Origin: a virus | Direction: 5' to 3' (one strand) | Length of the DNA: 59,013 nucleotides | Virus genome (UHGV): UHGV-0049545 | The notes under the pieces: generated by a model | Database searches by the model: none | The model's input: only the letters and a program-made list of their open reading frames with translations | Told to the model about the DNA's origin: nothing | Translations under genes and position numbers: made by a program | Shown here: one piece after another, positions 1-59,013 of the stretch | Numbering within the stretch: the first letter of the stretch is position 1 | How the letters are laid out: the number at the start of each line of letters is the position of its first letter

Positions 1-80
1 AGGCGGCAAATGTTGTAGCCGTAAGTGTCACGACCGCGGGAGACAGACCAGGACAGTGCCAGACGTTTAAGATTTTTCAT
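1..80 (-). CDS. N-terminal 26 codons (MKNLKRLALSWSVSRGRDTYGYNICR...) of a leftward gene that runs off the window start; reads in frame into 59013..58656 if the ends are joined
   Basis: ATG at 80-78 preceded by GAGGT SD (complement of 88-84). The 54-nt 5'UTR and promoter are duplicated at 56535-56612. Confidence 0.45.
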   Translation of the reverse strand, partial: MKNLKRLALSWSVSRGRDTYGYNICR

Positions 81-84
81 TTTG

Positions 85-192
85 TACCTCGTTTATGTTG
101 TTTCGTTGTCTGCGTATCCCCGCCGGGTGAGATAAATGTAATATGCACACGGAACGAGTGCAACCCCATAACCGGATTTATTTCATTTTTGC
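85..192. repeat. Copy A of a ~105-bp direct repeat (copy B at 56541-56642) covering the leftward promoter, its upstream flank and a long 5'UTR
   Basis: Aligned by eye, about 90% identical. Sequence outside the block is unrelated. Confidence 0.8.
135..163 (-). promoter_or_regulatory. Leftward sigma70-like promoter PL1: -35 TTGCAC (163-158), 17-nt spacer, -10 TACATT (140-135)
   Basis: Read on the minus strand: TTGCACtcgttccgtgtgcatatTACATT. The spacer carries the CGTTCCGTG / CGTGTGCA core shared with the rightward promoters. Confidence 0.6.
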
Positions 193-402
193 TTTCCACG
201 TCACCCCAGGGCGCGCCGCCCCGCCGTCATCCAACCGGGATCAACACCCCTGCAACCCGCGCCACGCCTGGCTCGCGGGCCTTCCCTCCCATCGGCGCCA
301 TTCCAGCGAAACCAATAAAATCAATGACTTACAAAAATCGCACCTTTTTCGGGATCCATGGGGACGCCGAAATCCGGATTTTCTATAAAAATTTTGGACT
401 TC

Positions 403-687: not shown

Positions 688-716
688 TTGACACACGGAA
701 CGTATGCAACTACATT
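688..716 (+). promoter_or_regulatory. Early promoter P1: TTGACA (688-693), N17, TACATT (711-716), spacer ...CACGGAACGTATGCAAC
   Basis: Consensus -35, 17-bp spacer, reasonable -10. One of four near-identical copies. First gene ATG at 758. Confidence 0.7.
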
Positions 717-4582: not shown

Positions 4583-4611
4583 TTGACACACGAATCGTGT
4601 TCAGCTACATT
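4583..4611 (+). promoter_or_regulatory. Early promoter P2: TTGACA (4583-4588), N17, TACATT (4606-4611); spacer ACACGAATCGTGT is a perfect palindrome
   Basis: Read directly; gene ATG at 4641. Confidence 0.7.
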
Positions 4612-6284: not shown

Positions 6285-6604
6285 GCAGAGTTACCAACGT
6301 CGTAGTTATGTGCGATACCCTTACCGAGCATTACGGGGTATTCCTGCGGTCCGTTGACCGCTGGTTCCGGGAACATACCGGCACCAGTCTTCGTTCCGTA
6401 GGCCACATGGCCGGCGGCGATAAAAACATGGAATGCAGCGTCTCCATTGGTGCTTTCAACCACCTGGACGTGGATGGGTTTTTCAAAGCGCTCCCGGGTT
6501 TTGTCGAAACTAAACGGATGGACGCGGACAGCGGCTTCATCCTCGTAACCGCTACCACCCAGGAGAACGAAATCATCACATGGAGGCATCAAGTTGAGTT
6601 CTGA
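6281..6604 (+). CDS. hypothetical protein
   Basis: ATGA overlap. Confidence 0.45.
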   Translation: MSRVTNVVVMCDTLTEHYGVFLRSVDRWFREHTGTSLRSVGHMAGGDKNMECSVSIGAFNHLDVDGFFKALPGFVETKRMDADSGFILVTATTQENEIITWRHQVEF

Positions 6605-8102: not shown

Positions 8103-9264
8103 ACCGTTCCACTATTACAACGAGTGGGACGCTAAAACCGCAGCATGGTTGCGTGAATTAATAAAACGTGGCCATCTTCAAGAAGGAATCGTCGATGAAC
8201 GATCAATCACCGAAGTCGCCCCGGAAGACCTCAAAGGCTTCGCCCAACACCATTTCTTCGCCGGGATCGGAGGCTGGCCGCTGGCCCTTAAACTCGCCGG
8301 ATGGCCGGCGTATGCGCCAGTGTGTACGGGAAGTCCGCCGTGCCAGCCTTTTAGTGTGGCTGGAAAACGAGGCGGGCGGGACGACTCCCGTCACCTGGCT
8401 CCGGCCTTTCTCGACCTCATCGCAGAGCTGCGACCTCCAGCTATTTTTGGCGAACAGGTTAGCGCAGCAATTAAAGAACTGTGGCTCGATGCTCTATTCG
8501 TTGAGCTGGAAGACGAAGGCTACACCTGCGCATCGGCAGTATTGCCAGCGTGCAGCGTCGGCGCCCCGCACAAAAGAGATCGCCTTTTCTTTGGCGCTAT
8601 CGACCTGGCCGACCTCGTCAGCGACGGACTGGAAAGGCGGCTACGCGGGTGGGCGGATAAGGAATGGCAAACTATCCGTCGACCGGCTGGACGTGGCGGC
8701 GCAGCTGGCAACATATCCAACGCCGAACACCTGCAACGATCGCAGCCCATGTCCGGACTACGCGCGGGCGGGATGGTTCCGGGAGGACGGGACGAAGAAG
8801 CACATCCGCCTGCAGGACATTGCGGGGATGGCGGGCTGGCCAACGGTGACGACGATAGACAACAACCAGGTTCGCGGGGAGGCGGGCGCAGCGGGCCATC
8901 CGGATCGGTCGACGACCCTGGGCGGCGCGGTTCGTCTTGCCAGCTACCCGACACCGCTGACGGTACCGGACTCACCGGCATCGAGGGGGCAGCTATCGGG
9001 GAGCTACCGGAAGGGCATGGAGAAGTGTACGCCTGTTCCGGACTTCCCGATCAGGATCACGGCGCATGGTCAAATGCTGACTGGCTGCTATGCCGGGATG
9101 GGAAGTTCAGGCCCGTTGAATCCGGCACATTCCCGCTGGCTAATGGGGTACCCGCCCGAGTGGTGCGACTGCGCGGATACGGAAACGCAATCGTCCCTCA
9201 AGTCGGTGCCCAGTTCATCCGAAACTTTATGGTGGGAACTGTAGATTTTCTGGAAAACGTTTGA
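8080..9264 (+). CDS. DNA (cytosine-5) methyltransferase; motifs I (FFAGIGG), IV ([12 protein letters not shown]), VIII (HKRDRLFF) and X (GNAIVPQV) are in this frame, but the target-recognition domain and motif IX ([10 protein letters not shown]) are in the +1 frame (8591-9166)
   Basis: Motifs read directly in two frames. The annotated ORF reads through but is low-complexity G/R/D/P-rich over 8600-9160. Confidence 0.6.
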
Positions 9265-9289
9265 CACACAAAACGTGTGCAGCTAGTAT
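9261..9289 (+). promoter_or_regulatory. Early promoter P3: TTGACA (9261-9266), N17, TAGTAT (9284-9289); spacer CACAC-aaaac-GTGTG palindrome
   Basis: Read directly; overlaps the 3' end of the methyltransferase gene; next ATG at 9325. Confidence 0.7.
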
Positions 9290-12314: not shown

Positions 12315-12343
12315 TTGACATACGATTCGTGTGCAACTAATAT
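12315..12343 (+). promoter_or_regulatory. Early promoter P4: TTGACA (12315-12320), N17, TAATAT (12338-12343); spacer ACGATTCGT palindrome
   Basis: Read directly. Confidence 0.7.
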
Positions 12344-54052: not shown

Positions 54053-54794
54053 TGACAGCTGCATCAGCACTGGTCCGGCTGCACCAGAGCACCGCCCCAA
54101 AATGTAATGCAATCAATCGGTTGCGGGGCTAAAACGGCCTTTAGGGCACCACCCCTGGAACGCAAAATCACGTCTGCCCTACGGGCAAAACTCGAAAAAA
54201 CGCCTGTAAATCATGAATTTCCGAAGTGGGGCTATGGGGATTTCGCCGCATTTTCTTCCACCGCGGCTCTGCGCACCCCCGGCACACCGGACCCCCTCGG
54301 AAGTACCTTTTTGAATTCGATCCGGATTCCTTCTCCAGCGCCACGGAGACGGGCGCAGCCTCGATCATGGTACACCCCTACAGCATACCCCCACGATAGC
54401 CGCGCCTGACCCCCATAGCGGCGGCATAATCGGCATACCTCCACCCGGTCACACGGTCACATAGCCACCCCGACACAAAAACACCCCCGATCACTACGAT
54501 CAGCGGCCTCATTGAACCTGCATCATGTGCATTGATACGGTCACACCCGGACAGCGCCTATAACACCCGCCCCGTGTGCAATACAGCAAGACCACAGCAC
54601 GCTATAACACCCCCGCCACTATGCCGGGGTGCACCTATAACATGTGCAAATAAACGGGCTTTAAAACGCTGTGTAGGACGGCGTAAAGGGGGGAGTCTTT
54701 GCAACTGGTCGGGTGCAACTTCTTTTCATCCACTGGCCACGCCAGCGGCCTTAACGATGGTCCGCGATCCTTTGGTTCGGGTTTATCGCAGACG

Positions 54795-54820
54795 TAAAAA
54801 AGCCCGCTCAACGGCGGGCC
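54795..54820 (-). terminator. Leftward rho-independent terminator ending the 59013->54847 operon (GCCCGC-N6-GCGGGC + UUUUUU)
   Basis: Stem plus a T6 run on the minus strand. Confidence 0.7.
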
Positions 54821-54846: not shown

Positions 54847-55170
54847 TTAATCATTCATGGTGCATAGGGGCGATTCTTCCAGACACTCACCCATCACGTG
54901 ATCGTAATTGTCGACCGTGTCCGATGGCATGCCGACATAGTAAAAATCCACGGTCCCGGGGATAGCCGCGAAGATGTAAGCCTGCGATACCGCCCACAGA
55001 TCCGCCGCCGTCATAGGGTCGCCGTCAAAGTCGGCCATCTCCGCCTCAGCATGCGCGATCATTGCATTGTTGCGGATATCGTCCGGCGTCGCCCCGCTCA
55101 CCGTTACCACAATCGGATCGGACGGGTCGCGCATATCATTACAGATCAGAATTGTCAGACGTTTTTTCAT
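54847..55170 (-). CDS. hypothetical protein
   Basis: ATG 55170 has the best SD; the longer ORF runs to 55197. Confidence 0.4.
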   Translation of the reverse strand: MKKRLTILICNDMRDPSDPIVVTVSGATPDDIRNNAMIAHAEAEMADFDGDPMTAADLWAVSQAYIFAAIPGTVDFYYVGMPSDTVDNYDHVMGECLEESPLCTMND

Positions 55171-55480
55171 TTTTCTTACCCTTGTTAAGACCTTCATTCA
55201 GTAGCGCGCGGAACTGCGCGGCGTGCTGTTCCCGCCCGGCTTTCTTGGCGCGTTGTAGTGCCCTGATCACCCTCGGGTCATCCCTAAGCGGTTCACTTTT
55301 GGCGTCCCTGTAACCTTCCATAACGCCGATATGATAGGCCGCCATTACCGCCTCTCTGATTTGCCCGCGCATATCTTCCACGTCATCCGCGCTATTCACC
55401 GTAGCGACCGGCTTTTGTAGGTTATCGTCCTTGTACAGCAGGACTACTGACCCTTTCACGTCCGTTTTAAAGTTACTCAC
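55139..55480 (-). CDS. hypothetical protein
   Basis: ORF. Confidence 0.45.
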   Translation of the reverse strand: MSNFKTDVKGSVVLLYKDDNLQKPVATVNSADDVEDMRGQIREAVMAAYHIGVMEGYRDAKSEPLRDDPRVIRALQRAKKAGREQHAAQFRALLNEGLNKGKKNEKTSDNSDL

Positions 55481-55683
55481 ATCTCACCCCCTACACCGTC
55501 CAGCGGTTCCCCGCGCTTACAGCTGATCGCGAACAATGCCGCCTTCTCCGGGAACTGTGCAACGGACTTGATGCAATCGCTATACGACAAATCGCCGTCG
55601 ATCACGTAGTCATCACAATCGGACGCCAGCGCGCCCGGGTTAACCGTGCACAGGGTTACAACTAAAAACCATACGGAAGCCAT
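55477..55683 (-). CDS. small secreted Cys-containing protein (signal peptide MASVWFLVVTLCTVNPGALA|SD)
   Basis: ATG 55683 behind AAAGGGG; signal peptide. Confidence 0.5.
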   Translation of the reverse strand: MASVWFLVVTLCTVNPGALASDCDDYVIDGDLSYSDCIKSVAQFPEKAALFAISCKRGEPLDGVGGEM

Positions 55684-55696
55684 GATAAAACCCCTT

Positions 55697-55822
55697 TTAC
55701 TTTTTGAATTTACGACCGCTTGCGCGGAGTTTACGACGGTATTCACAGGAAATGACGATAACCATTGCGGCGAACATCACCGCCGGAAAAATGATTTCCA
55801 CGACATCACGGAAAGCGAACAT
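55697..55822 (-). CDS. unlisted 41-aa membrane peptide MFAFRDVVEIIFPAVMFAAMVIVISCEYRRKLRASGRKFKK
   Basis: ATG 55822 five nt after AGGGGG; single TM helix plus basic tail; below the ORF-track size cut-off. Confidence 0.35.
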   Translation of the reverse strand: MFAFRDVVEIIFPAVMFAAMVIVISCEYRRKLRASGRKFKK

Positions 55823-55831
55823 ACATACCCC

Positions 55832-56089
55832 CTAGAAAAAAGATTTAAGTAGCGCCGGTAAAACCGGATTTTTGCGAATAGTTAGCACTTTGAGACGGTC
55901 CCGCCCCTCAGTGGTCCAGATAGTGACCGTCCAGGCGCGGGCCTTGTCATCCCACGATAGATCGGCATCCACCCGCGTAAAGCGAAGATCGCCCGCCGCT
56001 TTAAAGCCTTTTGCCGTGATATGCCCGATCCACTTCTCCGCCGCGTAGCGAGCTTGCGCCCGGCGAATATCGTTAGCCCGCATATTCAA
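55832..56089 (-). CDS. hypothetical protein
   Basis: ORF. Confidence 0.45.
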   Translation of the reverse strand: MNMRANDIRRAQARYAAEKWIGHITAKGFKAAGDLRFTRVDADLSWDDKARAWTVTIWTTEGRDRLKVLTIRKNPVLPALLKSFF

Positions 56090-56534
56090 TCCCCGCGATG
56101 CAGTGGAAAGGCAGCGAATGGTTATAGTGGGTATCGCGGGTCAGGCCGTGGCGCATATCCCACAACGCATTAAGGCGCATTAAAGCCGGGTAGATCTTTA
56201 TATCGGCCTGAGAGGCGATTAGGGTCATCCCGCCCGCCGTAGTGATTTTGACGGGCTTCACCATAAGCGCTTTACCGGATACCGCTTTCACCCCGGCGGC
56301 GTCCTTGCGTGCGACTGCTTTCCAGTCACGCAGTGATTTAACAGTTTTCTTCACCTGGCGGCGGTAAACGCTGTTACCGCGTACAGACCACAGGGATCGG
56401 AGGATATGCGCATAAAACGCCACCTTTGCGGCGCTGTATTCGGCGTCCGTTGCGTAGTCAGCGCGGTGTACGTGTGACGGGCGGCGGTTATCGGCGACGG
56501 CGTTAATTTTTGCGGTAATTTCGTCATGTGACAT
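56073..56534 (-). CDS. hypothetical protein (MSHDEITAKINAV...)
   Basis: ATG 56534 behind GAGGT, downstream of PL2. Confidence 0.5.
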   Translation of the reverse strand: MSHDEITAKINAVADNRRPSHVHRADYATDAEYSAAKVAFYAHILRSLWSVRGNSVYRRQVKKTVKSLRDWKAVARKDAAGVKAVSGKALMVKPVKITTAGGMTLIASQADIKIYPALMRLNALWDMRHGLTRDTHYNHSLPFHCIAGIEYAG

Positions 56535-56540
56535 TTTGTG

Positions 56541-56642
56541 TACCTCGTTTGTTGTTGTTTGCGTATCCCCGCCGGGTGAGATAAATGTAATATGCACACG
56601 TAATGAGTGCAACCCCTTAAACCCGATTTATTTCATTTTCGC
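56541..56642. repeat. Copy B of the ~105-bp promoter/5'UTR direct repeat
   Basis: Aligned with 85-192. Confidence 0.8.
56584..56612 (-). promoter_or_regulatory. Leftward promoter PL2: TTGCAC (56612-56607), N17, TACATT (56589-56584)
   Basis: Copy B of the duplicated promoter block; minus strand reads TTGCACtcattacgtgtgcatatTACATT. Confidence 0.6.
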
Positions 56643-56660: not shown

Positions 56661-56686
56661 AATAAAAAAGGCGGCTTATCGCCGCC
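56661..56686 (-). terminator. Leftward terminator (GGCGGC-ttatc-GCCGCC + UUUUUU) right after the 56676 gene and just upstream of PL2
   Basis: Stem plus a T6 run on the minus strand; the stop codon lies in the loop. Confidence 0.65.
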
Positions 56687-56888
56687 CTTCTTTGATCCAG
56701 TCTAACAGGGCGTCGCCCTGGTCCTGTGAGGGCCAGATAAGCCCACAGCAGACTCCGCCCGCCACCGTGTAAAGTATCGGGCGGAACAGGCCGCCACCGT
56801 CACCCGCGATTATGGCGATCACGGTAAAGCCAGCGATCAGGCCACACGCGGAGAACTTTACGACGGCCTTTTTTGCGTCGTTATTCAT
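56676..56888 (-). CDS. small membrane protein
   Basis: Two hydrophobic segments. Confidence 0.45.
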   Translation of the reverse strand: MNNDAKKAVVKFSACGLIAGFTVIAIIAGDGGGLFRPILYTVAGGVCCGLIWPSQDQGDALLDWIKEGRR

Positions 56889-57076
56889 GATTTCGACGCC
56901 CCCTTACATTCAACGATACAGAAAGAATCACGGCGCAACGTTTTATCAGCGAAGATCCCGCTGTCGCCGTATCGCTCGACCCATTCTTGCGCGCGTTCAC
57001 GCGACCAGGTGATGCAATGCACTGCAAGCGCGTTATTCTTCTCAATCACTTTAAATTCCATATTCATCACTCCCAC
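56885..57076 (-). CDS. hypothetical protein
   Basis: ORF. Confidence 0.4.
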   Translation of the reverse strand: MGVMNMEFKVIEKNNALAVHCITWSRERAQEWVERYGDSGIFADKTLRRDSFCIVECKGASKS

Positions 57077-57819
57077 GGCCCGACGATATCCAGCGGATGA
57101 TCGCCCACGGCGTTCAGGTGCCCGGACCTCATCCAGACGTTATATCCACGCGGCCGCATCACCCCGCGAAACATCTTCCAGGCGCTACCCTTGCATGGGA
57201 ACGTATACGGAACGGATCCGTTATCAATGCTGTCAATAGTCACCCGCGTGCCGTTGCGCGTGACATAGTCGCCGGGGGCGGTAATAACAGTCGGCGCGGT
57301 CTCGCCTTTCTTGTAAACGTCTGCCCTGGCTGCCAGCGCATCGGAGGCGGCCCGGAGGGCCTCCGCCTTGCTGTTGAATTCTTGAGGTTTAGCGCCTGCT
57401 ATTTCCACACAAAAGAGACCGCCGCGCCCGGTAGACCAGGACACTCGCCCTACTTGCTCGCCGCGAAACATGAGGGCGGCGACTACGCCCATAGCCGGGC
57501 GGCATTCAACGACAGCCCAGCAAGCGCCCGCCGATACGACTCCCCGGCGGTCCGCCTGCCCATCGTTTGCCGTGAGCGCTTTTGCGTAATTATCGAGGTC
57601 GTCGGGGTGTTCCTGTCTCAGCGCTTCCCGCATATCTGACAGGGTGTTACCCGTAGCCGGGACCCTCCGTCCTGCCTGGTCAAAAAGGGCTTTCACCTGA
57701 TCGCCGGGCATCACCGCGATCCGGTCATTCCAGGCATCAGCGCGGCGGCTAACCTCATCAGATACAAGATTGCCAGTAGCGAGCGCCGCATATTCATGCG
57801 ATTCTATTTTGAGTTTCAT
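57067..57819 (-). CDS. paralogue 1 of the MK(L/I)KIE(S/T)HKYA family (250 aa)
   Basis: Conserved 5' ~30 nt. Confidence 0.5.
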   Translation of the reverse strand: MKLKIESHEYAALATGNLVSDEVSRRADAWNDRIAVMPGDQVKALFDQAGRRVPATGNTLSDMREALRQEHPDDLDNYAKALTANDGQADRRGVVSAGACWAVVECRPAMGVVAALMFRGEQVGRVSWSTGRGGLFCVEIAGAKPQEFNSKAEALRAASDALAARADVYKKGETAPTVITAPGDYVTRNGTRVTIDSIDNGSVPYTFPCKGSAWKMFRGVMRPRGYNVWMRSGHLNAVGDHPLDIVGPWE

Positions 57820-57821
57820 AA

Positions 57822-58187
57822 TTAGGCCCCCACGGTTTTTATTGAGATAACGCGAACATTTACAGGCGGTAAAATCGACCCATCTAACAGCGGCCCCCCA
57901 GTGTTACGGGCTTTAATGTTAGCGATCACGTTTTTAAGATGTTCGTATGAATCCACGGTCCCGGAATAGCGGCGATTCAGGCCAGCGAAACGAGGATCGT
58001 TATAATACGCCTCCACTGTTACGACCCGGCGGAATGGAAGCGCTTTAGGGAATAACGCCGCGCGGGCCTCGTTTACAGACGTAACCGACGGGGCGCGGAG
58101 TACAGCCGCGCGGGATGAATTTTTGCCCGTTAAATAAACGCGATTTAATTCCGGCGCATATTTATGCGATTCAATTTTAATTCTCAT
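57822..58187 (-). CDS. paralogue 2 of the MK(L/I)KIE(S/T)HKYA family (121 aa)
   Basis: Conserved 5' ~30 nt. Confidence 0.5.
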   Translation of the reverse strand: MRIKIESHKYAPELNRVYLTGKNSSRAAVLRAPSVTSVNEARAALFPKALPFRRVVTVEAYYNDPRFAGLNRRYSGTVDSYEHLKNVIANIKARNTGGPLLDGSILPPVNVRVISIKTVGA

Positions 58188-58201
58188 GGCCTGTACTCCC
58201 G

Positions 58202-58456
58202 CTATTCGTTTTCGTCCGTGACCGTTTCGATCACCGCTATAACGTTATAATCTCCCGGATAAAAGGGGTATTTCTTGAGGTCTTCAACGTCCAGATCACC
58301 CGTTTGGTCGGCGTACCATTCTTTTTTGGCGGCCAATACCGCGGCCTCTTCATCGTCCGCCATTACGCGGCGGACACTGGTAATCGAAGCGTCATAGCTG
58401 TCAGAAAGGACAACGGCAAACCGTTTCGGCGCATATTTATGCGTTTCAATTTTCAT
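58202..58456 (-). CDS. paralogue 3 of the MK(L/I)KIE(S/T)HKYA family (84 aa), acidic C-terminus
   Basis: Conserved 5' ~30 nt. Confidence 0.5.
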   Translation of the reverse strand: MKIETHKYAPKRFAVVLSDSYDASITSVRRVMADDEEAAVLAAKKEWYADQTGDLDVEDLKKYPFYPGDYNVIAVIETVTDENE

Positions 58457-58458
58457 GA

Positions 58459-58659
58459 TCAGGCACCTTGCAAAATTAAAGTGAAAATATTATTGGAACA
58501 ACCGATCAAACGTCCGGTTTTACGTTCACGCAAATAAATAGTCATACGACCAAAACACGGACGGCGTTCAATTCGGCAACGTTTTAAAACGCGGCGGACG
58601 TCCGCCCCGATATAAACGCCTATGATGAAATAGCCAATAAAAATTATGGTCATCATCAT
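58459..58659 (-). CDS. small hydrophobic protein
   Basis: Short ORF; weak. Confidence 0.3.
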   Translation of the reverse strand: MMMTIIFIGYFIIGVYIGADVRRVLKRCRIERRPCFGRMTIYLRERKTGRLIGCSNNIFTLILQGA

Positions 58660-59013
58660 TCGACCTCGCTTACATACCAGCCCACCGTTTCACCCCGGCG
58701 GCGCCCTTTTGCGATATAATCGCGCTCAACCTCCAGCCCGATAGCCTCAGCAATGCGGATCATGCAATCAAGGCCGCACGCACCATCAAGTGAAACGCGC
58801 TCGCCTTTTTCGTGGTAACTCATGCCGTAAAAACAATTATCATGGTTAGCAGGGCGCGGCGCACCTTCCAGCGGGAAAACGTAGCTGGCGCGATCTTTCA
58901 GCGCCAATAATTCAGGCTGATAGTTAGCCTCGATCCACTGGGCAAATACGGTGCCCAACATATCGTACCCGCCGCCCATACATTTAAAGCGGTCCCCGGT
59001 TGACGTGTCATCC
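58656..59013 (-). CDS. hypothetical protein; frame is open upstream to the window end and in phase with the 80..1 fragment
   Basis: No stop between 58979 and 59013; codon phase matches. Confidence 0.4.
   Translation of the reverse strand, partial: DDTSTGDRFKCMGGGYDMLGTVFAQWIEANYQPELLALKDRASYVFPLEGAPRPANHDNCFYGMSYHEKGERVSLDGACGLDCMIRIAEAIGLEVERDYIAKGRRRGETVGWYVSEVE

Follow-up and report, generated by a model that had tools for sequence, protein, structure and literature searches.

The 59,013-nucleotide stretch analyzed here, virus genome UHGV-0049545 (the window), comes from a Klebsiella siphophage of the genus Yonseivirus, in the Chi-like family Casjensviridae, and is 93-95% identical to phages PIN2, SAKp02, Soft, and Salado. 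It represents a complete, circularly permuted genome, both ends being contiguous in phage SAKp02. On its minus strand, two clusters of small genes are each headed by one copy of a duplicated block with the anatomy of a promoter fused to a leader, copy A spanning positions 82-192 and copy B positions 56536-56642. Since the ends of the window are joined in SAKp02, the two copies are 2,564 bp apart and not 56 kb. Copy A is located upstream of gene A1 (145 residues), the 5' part of which covers positions 1-80 (minus strand) and which continues over the junction at 59013-58656; homologues of A1 occupy the same position in Chivirus. Together with six small ORFan genes, the rest of A1 fills positions 56676-59013, cluster A thus comprising seven small genes over ~2.4 kb, the last of which encodes a conserved 70-residue membrane-like protein (56888-56676). 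A strong terminator closes the cluster (56661-56686, minus strand; GGCGGC-GATAA-GCCGCC followed by TTTTTTATT, with the GGCGGC/GCCGCC stem at 56686-56670). Copy B follows directly, as the preliminary description of this DNA had proposed, the terminator ending 18 nt upstream of it and being conserved before all 11 B copies compared. Cluster B (54847-56534, minus strand, ~1.7 kb) consists of gene B1 (153 residues, 56534-56073) and about five small genes, and its own terminator (54796-54819, minus strand; GCCCGC-CGTTGA-GCGGGC followed by TTTTTT) is annotated at the equivalent place in phage Seifer. A simple consensus scan missed these two terminators, the clearest of the minus strand, and both were read straight from the sequence. 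The equivalent of the annotated cos ends of Seifer falls at 54277/54278, and both blocks point toward it, copy B from ~2.3 kb and copy A from ~4.9 kb. Pfam returned no match for the proteins encoded by the leftward clusters, which are typical early-region ORFans, and the gene content of the clusters is mosaic among relatives.

Alignment of the minus strands of copies A (81-192) and B (56535-56642) reports identities in 100 of 105 ungapped columns (95%), or 87% once 10 indel columns are counted, with 5 substitutions between the copies. The 100 nt flanking them on either side are 28-29% identical, the random level, and the earlier claim of two ~90% identical blocks amid unrelated flanks is therefore borne out. 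The repeat family D5, of 67 nt and 94% identity, spans both blocks, and a 53-nt core pattern returns exactly two sites in the window and none in 100 shuffles. The possibility, also raised in the preliminary description, that this similarity stems from an assembly duplication or from collapsed reads has practically no chance of being correct. Apart from the nearness of the copies to the two window ends nothing speaks in its favor, while the substitutions and indels separate A from B, the window ends join seamlessly in the independent SAKp02 genome, and two diverged copies are present at the same two positions in all 22 independently sequenced Klebsiella phage (Yonseivirus) records, exactly two in each. 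Further contigs of IMG/VR also harbor the pair.

The anatomy of the unit was established from an alignment of 21 copies from 11 genomes, later extended to a tally of 28 distinct copies including IMG/VR contigs. In transcriptional order, it comprises an upstream box, an A/T tract, a -35 hexamer, a 17-nt spacer, a -10 hexamer, 7 nt, the sequence CCCGGCGGGG, an A/C-rich leader, a Shine-Dalgarno (SD) sequence AAACGAGG, and the ATG. The previously noticed TTGCAC-N17-TACATT is indeed found in both copies. The -35 hexamer TTGCAC, located at 158-163 in copy A and 56612-56607 in copy B, is shared by 27 of the 28 copies; the -10 hexamer TACATT, at 135-140 and 56589-56584, reads TACATT or TATGTT in relatives; and the spacer measures 17 nt in A and B. 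With four of six consensus positions in TTGCAC, four of six in TACATT (A2 and T6 among them), and this spacing, both copies match a sigma-70 promoter moderately well. Concerning the -10 dimorphism (CA versus TG), none of the 28 copies carries a TATATT or TACGTT intermediate, TATATT being the form that would sit closer to the consensus. The A/T tract, AAAAATGAAATAAAT in copy A (176-190, minus strand, ~-62 to -48) and at 56626-56639 in copy B, resembles the distal subsite of an UP element, a role that we infer only from its position and composition. Further upstream, at ~-75, the box GGGGTGACGYGGAAAGC (GGGGTGACGTGGAAAGC at 191-207, minus strand, in copy A) is present in both copies of most relatives and is deleted from copy B of the window and of Seifer. 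Many A copies carry a leader segment, CGGGGTGACGCGAACAAC, to which this box bears a resemblance, and GGTGACGCGG is also found upstream of copy B in Season12 (L012, ~6538-6550); the box could be left over from a tandem duplication or serve as a second protein site.

The distance from each copy to the first ATG of its co-directional cluster is 47-50 nt, copy A being situated in a divergent gap and copy B after a terminator; 10 annotated relatives show this arrangement too. A function of the plus strand, as coding sequence or promoter, was rejected: the open reading frame (ORF) 143-388 begins inside copy A, has no counterpart at copy B, and plus-strand hexamers are poor. A gene predicted in the gap of Serratia phage JS26 equivalent to that of copy A received no RNA sequencing (RNA-seq) reads.

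The leader, announced in the preliminary description as ~50 nt ending in GAGGTACA(C)AAAATG, was found as a stretch of ~47 nt that terminates with GAGGTACAAAATG in A and GAGGTACACAAAATG in B and reaches the start codons at 80-78 and 56534-56532, respectively. The A/C-rich part of copy A (81-117, minus strand) is unstructured (fold z +0.9) and harbors the SD sequence AAACGAGGT at 86-94, its counterpart in copy B being located at 56542-56550, in both cases 7-9 nt before the ATG. The SD context of AAACGAGGT occurs twice in the window, both times in the blocks, which rules out a start-associated sequence reused genome-wide. Of note, in JS26 (L014) five genes belonging to the early cluster are preceded by one 22-nt leader/SD motif, TAAACCGAACGCTTAGGAGTTC (at 2965, 4236, 4854, 6067, and 6307), a reuse that can be likened to the start-associated sequences of some mycobacteriophages. 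Between the -10 hexamer and the A/C-rich stretch, a CCC-GGCG-GGG mini-hairpin (118-127, minus strand, in copy A; 56567-56576 in copy B) coincides with the predicted 5' end of the transcripts, the predicted +1 being ~128 and ~56577. Apart from this mini-hairpin, whole leaders fold no better than shuffles (z from 0 to +1.9), and a structured leader or riboswitch was rejected on that ground; likewise, covariance models of Rfam at gathering score matched no family anywhere in the window, and a known RNA family was discarded.

The spacer contains a quasi-palindrome, TGCAC-N9-GTGCA (144-162 in copy A, 56593-56611 in copy B), the left arm of which overlaps the -35 hexamer and which fills the spacer as a putative operator. 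It overlaps the core promoter in six promoter-like sites, namely the two blocks and four rightward promoters starting at 688, 4583, 9261, and 12315. The first of these, P_R1 (688-716, plus strand), reads TTGACA-N17-TACATT and scores 10/12; the stretch GATACGCAAA of its leader (717-760) recurs unchanged in the block leader, which makes P_R1 a more distant paralogue of the same unit. The three others are located on the plus strand at 4583-4611, 9261-9289, and 12315-12343, with the spacers CACACGA-A-TCGTGTT, CACACAAAACGTGTG, and CATACGA-T-TCGTGTG, respectively. Counted from where the -35 begins, the distance to the palindrome center is 11 nt for the rightward promoters of Yonseivirus and the promoters of Chivirus, versus 10 nt for the leftward blocks. 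The half-sites differ between the Klebsiella rightward promoters (CACACGA-N-TCGTGTG) and Chivirus (GTACGC-C-GCGTAT), the ACG-N3-CGT core being common to both, and these Yonseivirus-Chivirus differences are symmetric on both half-sites, which suggests, as far as sequences can tell, a co-evolving dimeric regulator, since such a protein would produce changes of this kind. Moreover, the 9-bp core between the perfect 5-bp arms is exactly reverse-complemented in 6 of 28 copies (TCGTTCCGT versus ACGGAACGA), in 5 of 14 A and 1 of 14 B copies, from relatives L006, L009, L017, L019, and L023. This flip looks like a small inversion of the hairpin-loop type, either recurring or spread by recombination. 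The observation that the operator core is inverted relative to the rightward promoters is thus literally true, but the orientation of a quasi-palindrome flipped in 6 of 28 copies carries no meaning. As for the accompanying proposal that one regulator serves both directions, the palindrome shared by six promoters stands, whereas the regulator itself is a conjecture from its putative sites.

A site placed between the -35 and -10 hexamers with a normal 17-nt spacer occupies a repressor position, MerR-type spacer activators requiring 19-20 nt. The site of NtrC (TGCAC-N7-GTGCA) resembles the arms with the wrong spacing, N9 being found here, and sites of the LacI/GalR type and of CRP do not fit the palindrome. 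Regarding the protein that might bind it, the annotation of Seifer lists a "transcriptional regulator" and a "helix-turn-helix (HTH) containing protein", the window homologues of which return no hit with Pfam, NCBIfam, or the PDB and yield only low-confidence models. A weak HTH_PafC match (16.7 bits for a cutoff of 32) is located within 1195-1644 of the window.

Pairs of similar blocks are not restricted to Yonseivirus: Season12 (Chivirus), Serratia phage Smarc5, and JS26 (Dunedinvirus) possess one apiece, with one block at the head of the first cluster and the other right behind a conserved ~213-nt gene. In Chivirus, 110 records hold the block at 201 places, and the complete genomes among those listed, Chi and YSD1 included, hold it at 2 places each. 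The comparison with related phages advocated in the preliminary description thus reports two copies in 22 of 22 relatives and analogous pairs in three other groups. Within Yonseivirus, A copies are 88% identical to one another and B copies 84%, both above the ~81% between A and B, and the duplication therefore predates the genus. The A-B identity reaches 81.2% inside a genome, against 80.1% across genomes (permutation p = 0.07), and strong ongoing concerted evolution inside the genus is unsupported. Only local patches of exchange are seen: TATCTCA in both copies of the window only, the flipped core in both copies of PIN2, an A-type long leader in copy B of S9a, and a B-type short leader in copy A of MAG26fr. 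A-B conversion inside the genus is hence at most patchy. Over longer times, the within-genome A-B identity is 0.87, 0.71, 0.85, and 0.68 in the four groups, compared with 0.47-0.72 for A-A and B-B between genera and 0.51 for shuffled sequences, suggesting that both copies evolve together, either by slow conversion or by tracking one regulator. Of note, records named as Listeria, Staphylococcus, and Enterococcus phages (such as OR847699.1, GU169904.1, and OR844954.1) hold Chi-like enterobacterial phage sequence and are probably mislabelled or contaminated.

Expression data are available for JS26. The corresponding arm of that phage consists of 13 leftward genes, gp01-gp13, and its blocks precede gp13 and gp05. 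Strand-specific RNA-seq reports gp01-gp13 as "expressed early" at 5 min (PMC8754663), and a transposon-insertion sequencing (Tn-seq) preprint calls these genes small and non-essential and reports high expression within 5 min, the transposon orientation tracking the gene direction (10.64898/2025.12.19.695335). From synteny and shared architecture with JS26, we infer that early and strong leftward transcription also occurs in the Yonseivirus phage. Together with the 22/22 conservation and the pairs of the wider family, the JS26 analogy argues for the earlier proposal of a duplicated unit heading two leftward operons. The proposal that transcription is terminated and restarted between them is upheld for Yonseivirus and Smarc5 but not for JS26 and Season12, in which no obvious terminator precedes copy B.

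We therefore consider it likely that the blocks are paralogous units, each made up of an early promoter of the host sigma-70 type and a leader, that head two leftward clusters and share an operator-like spacer. In the leader, a small GC hairpin would come first, then an open A/C-rich stretch, and finally a strong SD sequence. Copy A would start transcription of the ~2.4-kb cluster of accessory genes, the intrinsic terminator would stop that transcript, and copy B, 40 nt beyond, would start the next ~1.7-kb cluster toward the cos end. Because they possess the same promoter and the same translation-initiation context, clusters A and B would be expressed alike and yet independently. The JS26 preprint argues that this cos end of the genome enters the cell first (10.64898/2025.12.19.695335); should this apply here, copy B could fire once the first ~2.3 kb of DNA are inside the cell. 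The spacer quasi-palindrome is most likely bound by a dimeric, probably phage-encoded repressor that would shut all these promoters together.

Several points weigh against this interpretation. The hexamers match the consensus at 8 of 12 positions, below the 9/12 threshold of the promoter scan that left them uncalled, compared with 10/12 for the rightward promoters. The literature returned no transcript-start data for Yonseivirus. The rightward arm of JS26 is "mid" and not early (PMC8754663), a shared regulator not necessarily meaning shared timing; the JS26 spacer lacks a clean palindrome; and shared ancestry, not function, could in part account for the spacer being conserved among the six promoters. 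In the hunt for the regulator, Pfam, PHROGs, and NCBIfam analyses of 22 early-region proteins were uninformative, a PDB sequence search with three candidates gave no usable match, and single-sequence AlphaFold models of two candidates reached predicted local distance difference test (pLDDT) scores of only 49 and 46. Finally, the hairpin counts only 3 bp, with a single compensatory variant and a variant leader for which it is not predicted.

This last feature is central to a different explanation, according to which the region past the -10 hexamer is conserved as a functional RNA, its 5' hairpin and A/C sequence stabilizing early mRNA or binding a phage or host factor, and the promoter is incidental to the duplication. 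We regard it as possible, though on the whole doubtful. A CCC-tetraloop-GGG element begins 7 nt past the -10 in Yonseivirus (CCC-GGCG-GGG) and 6 nt past it in Season12 and JS26 (CCC-UUCG-GGG), the loop changing between Yonseivirus on the one hand and Chivirus and JS26 on the other while the stem stays. Within Yonseivirus, CCCGGCGGGG is found in 25 copies and CCGGGCGCGG in 3, all of them B copies; the latter results from a compensatory swap of C3/G8 for G3/C8, by which the third pair is retained, and none of the 28 copies shows just one of the two changes. A second, stronger GC hairpin has been added in other genera, and the SD context is the same in both copies and unique to them. The CCC/GGG element, considered by its sequence, points to a 5'-terminal stem-loop, possibly an mRNA stabilizer. 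Hairpins of the ompA type are such 5'-terminal stabilizers, and the similarity lies in a GC hairpin within a few nucleotides of where the transcript is predicted to begin, the leader being open otherwise; unlike them, the Yonseivirus hairpin is limited to 3 bp and its 5' end is a predicted one. However, with 3 bp the energy is marginal, and the stem folds in both window leaders but not in the variant leader (predicted fold). Moreover, the covariation amounts to one event, the leader as a whole folds at shuffle level, and Rfam is silent. Leader length varies by 8-nt indels among the aligned copies, and a precise RNA architecture is therefore not required, while the A/T tract, the -35 hexamer, and the spacer are conserved at least equally strongly. 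It is very unlikely, on the other hand, that the sites are promoters requiring a phage factor, be it a modified RNA polymerase or an activator that binds the palindrome or the upstream box, and belong to a delayed-early or middle class co-activated with the four rightward promoters. The sub-optimal 8/12 match, the conserved box at ~-75, and the sharing of the palindrome with promoters of the arm for DNA metabolism, classed as "mid" in JS26, would fit such a dependence, but the equivalent leftward arm of JS26 is already highly expressed at 5 min, the site with its normal 17-nt spacing is in the repressor position, and the family, judging from the annotation of Seifer, encodes no RNA polymerase.

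It has also to be considered that the blocks might chiefly be recombination substrates, direct repeats of terminator, early promoter, and SD sequence that bracket a hyperplastic cluster. The promoter would then be active, its conservation being driven by shuffling, and the phage's own RecT/exonuclease would swap, delete, or excise as a mini-circle the genes between the blocks. The closest described concept is that of the promoter-early stem-loop elements (PeSLs) of T4-type phages (Arbiol et al. 2010, PMC2839356; Comeau et al. 2014, PMC4122927). These, too, are repeated units that combine a terminator stem-loop with a sigma-70-like early promoter, an A/T-rich stretch, and an SD sequence; they adjoin small non-essential ORFans in variable regions, insulate modules at the transcriptional level, and provide homology for recombination. 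Copy B, with its terminator directly before promoter and SD sequence, is such a composite; copy A lacks the terminator, as do the B copies of JS26 and Season12. Relatives differ in a mosaic fashion in the genes between and after the blocks, with the blocks themselves and the last 213-nt gene staying constant, a different first gene directly abuts the SD sequence in PIN2, MAG26fr, and OU509537, and the local exchange patches, as well as the greater long-term likeness of A and B within a genome than of orthologues between genera, would also be accounted for. Nevertheless, this explanation appears improbable. Instead of being dispersed in many copies among ORFans, the blocks number two per genome (six with the looser rightward promoters) at fixed syntenic positions in four groups; no deletion product is seen, the A-B interval being lost in none of the 22 records and the IMG/VR contigs, and no indels have breakpoints in two flanking cassettes. 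Replaced genes have a block at just one of their two borders, A-B identity within genomes exceeds that between genomes only weakly (see the permutation above), and the block is absent outside the lineage. The palindromic spacer and conserved leader are not PeSL features either, and PeSL carriers are T4-like myoviruses whereas the present phage is a Chi-like siphovirus. A 33-nt degenerate pattern matched nothing but contigs of Yonseivirus-like viruses, a single unrelated contig rich in A/T, and, among 596 Gb of genomes, a single Iodobacter contig, about 2 chance matches being estimated for a collection of that size. With the block confined to the lineage in viral and bacterial collections, and at fixed positions, a widely mobile cassette was rejected, and the suggestion of a mobile promoter cassette did not hold; the block may assist local recombination, not being a roaming element.

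As probable early promoters sharing an operator-like site, the blocks invite comparison with other phage systems. The lambdoid PL/OL and PR/OR regions, controlled by CI and Cro, likewise place one quasi-palindromic operator over the -35/-10 region of leftward and rightward promoters, and by the same logic one dimeric HTH protein could control both arms here. In contrast, there is one site per promoter and not three tandem operators, the promoters number six with two in tandem on one arm, and the role would be early shut-off and not lysogeny; the annotation of Seifer holds no repressor/integrase lysogeny module, while one record of the KPN group lists a "viral integrase family 4". Phages T7 (A1/A2/A3) and T5 (pre-early and early promoters) possess similar promoters for the host RNA polymerase near the end that enters first, and these drive small host-takeover genes within minutes. 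The likeness to these leading-end promoters depends on the entry argument made for this family in the JS26 preprint (10.64898/2025.12.19.695335); unlike in T7 and T5, transcription is directed here toward the genome end, each promoter has its own cluster with a terminator between them, and the leader and SD sequence are duplicated as well.

A wider reading would unite these features into a dedicated, co-evolving immediate-early module of the Casjensviridae, built of a genus-specific dimeric regulator, a CCC-tetraloop-GGG tag, gene conversion, and an excisable cassette. The palindromic site of the regulator would stand at a fixed position in every early and middle promoter, the 5' tag of two early transcripts would be recognized by a host or phage factor for stabilization or processing, and the copies, kept alike by slow gene conversion, would double as excision points of a swappable accessory cassette. 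Such a combination is unlikely; if true, it would represent a new regulatory circuit for a lytic phage family, beyond a duplicated promoter. Taken by itself, a pair conserved across a phage family is an ordinary kind of phage regulatory duplication that is unsurprising to a specialist, and the value of the findings is more practical than conceptual, the feature being of an expected kind. Indeed, Chi-like phages, Yonseivirus among them, are being isolated as candidates for therapy against Klebsiella and Salmonella, their transcription programme being essentially undescribed, and we found no paper that mentions these promoters. The outcome is a testable map of the early arm with two promoters, two terminators, a shared operator-like site, and a leader that should give strong early expression. 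This map may guide the choice of insertion sites and native expression signals in phage engineering and the search for the regulator that switches early genes off. It also bears on annotation, several GenBank ORFs over the block being probably spurious. Hypothetical ORFs cover the promoter block and upstream box in Soft (gp15, L003 3936-4109), MAG26fr (orf011, L004 3909-4115), and SAKp02 (WMI32133, L001 8347-8571), and probably represent over-annotation.

Two further observations concern the neighborhood of the blocks. Three consecutive genes of cluster A (58456-58202, 58187-57822, and 57819-57067, minus strand) share the start motif MK(I/L)(K)IE(S/T)H(K/E)YA, its DNA repeats being located at 57781, 58149, and 58424; they resemble tandem paralogues whose C-terminal parts have diverged. 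Block A is separated from P_R1 by a GC-rich gap of 490 bp, filled with 28-nt iteron-like repeats of core CTTACTTGG (403-430, 448-475, and 615-642, with a partial fourth at ~645-660). The same core, in the form CAAGTAAG / TACTTGAG, occurs 4-6 times in the corresponding gap of Chivirus, Smarc5, and JS26 (L012 3771-4004, L013 2991-3252, and L014 6727-7030), and JS26 gp14, predicted in this gap, has no RNA-seq reads. The array may be a replication origin or a regulator-binding array.

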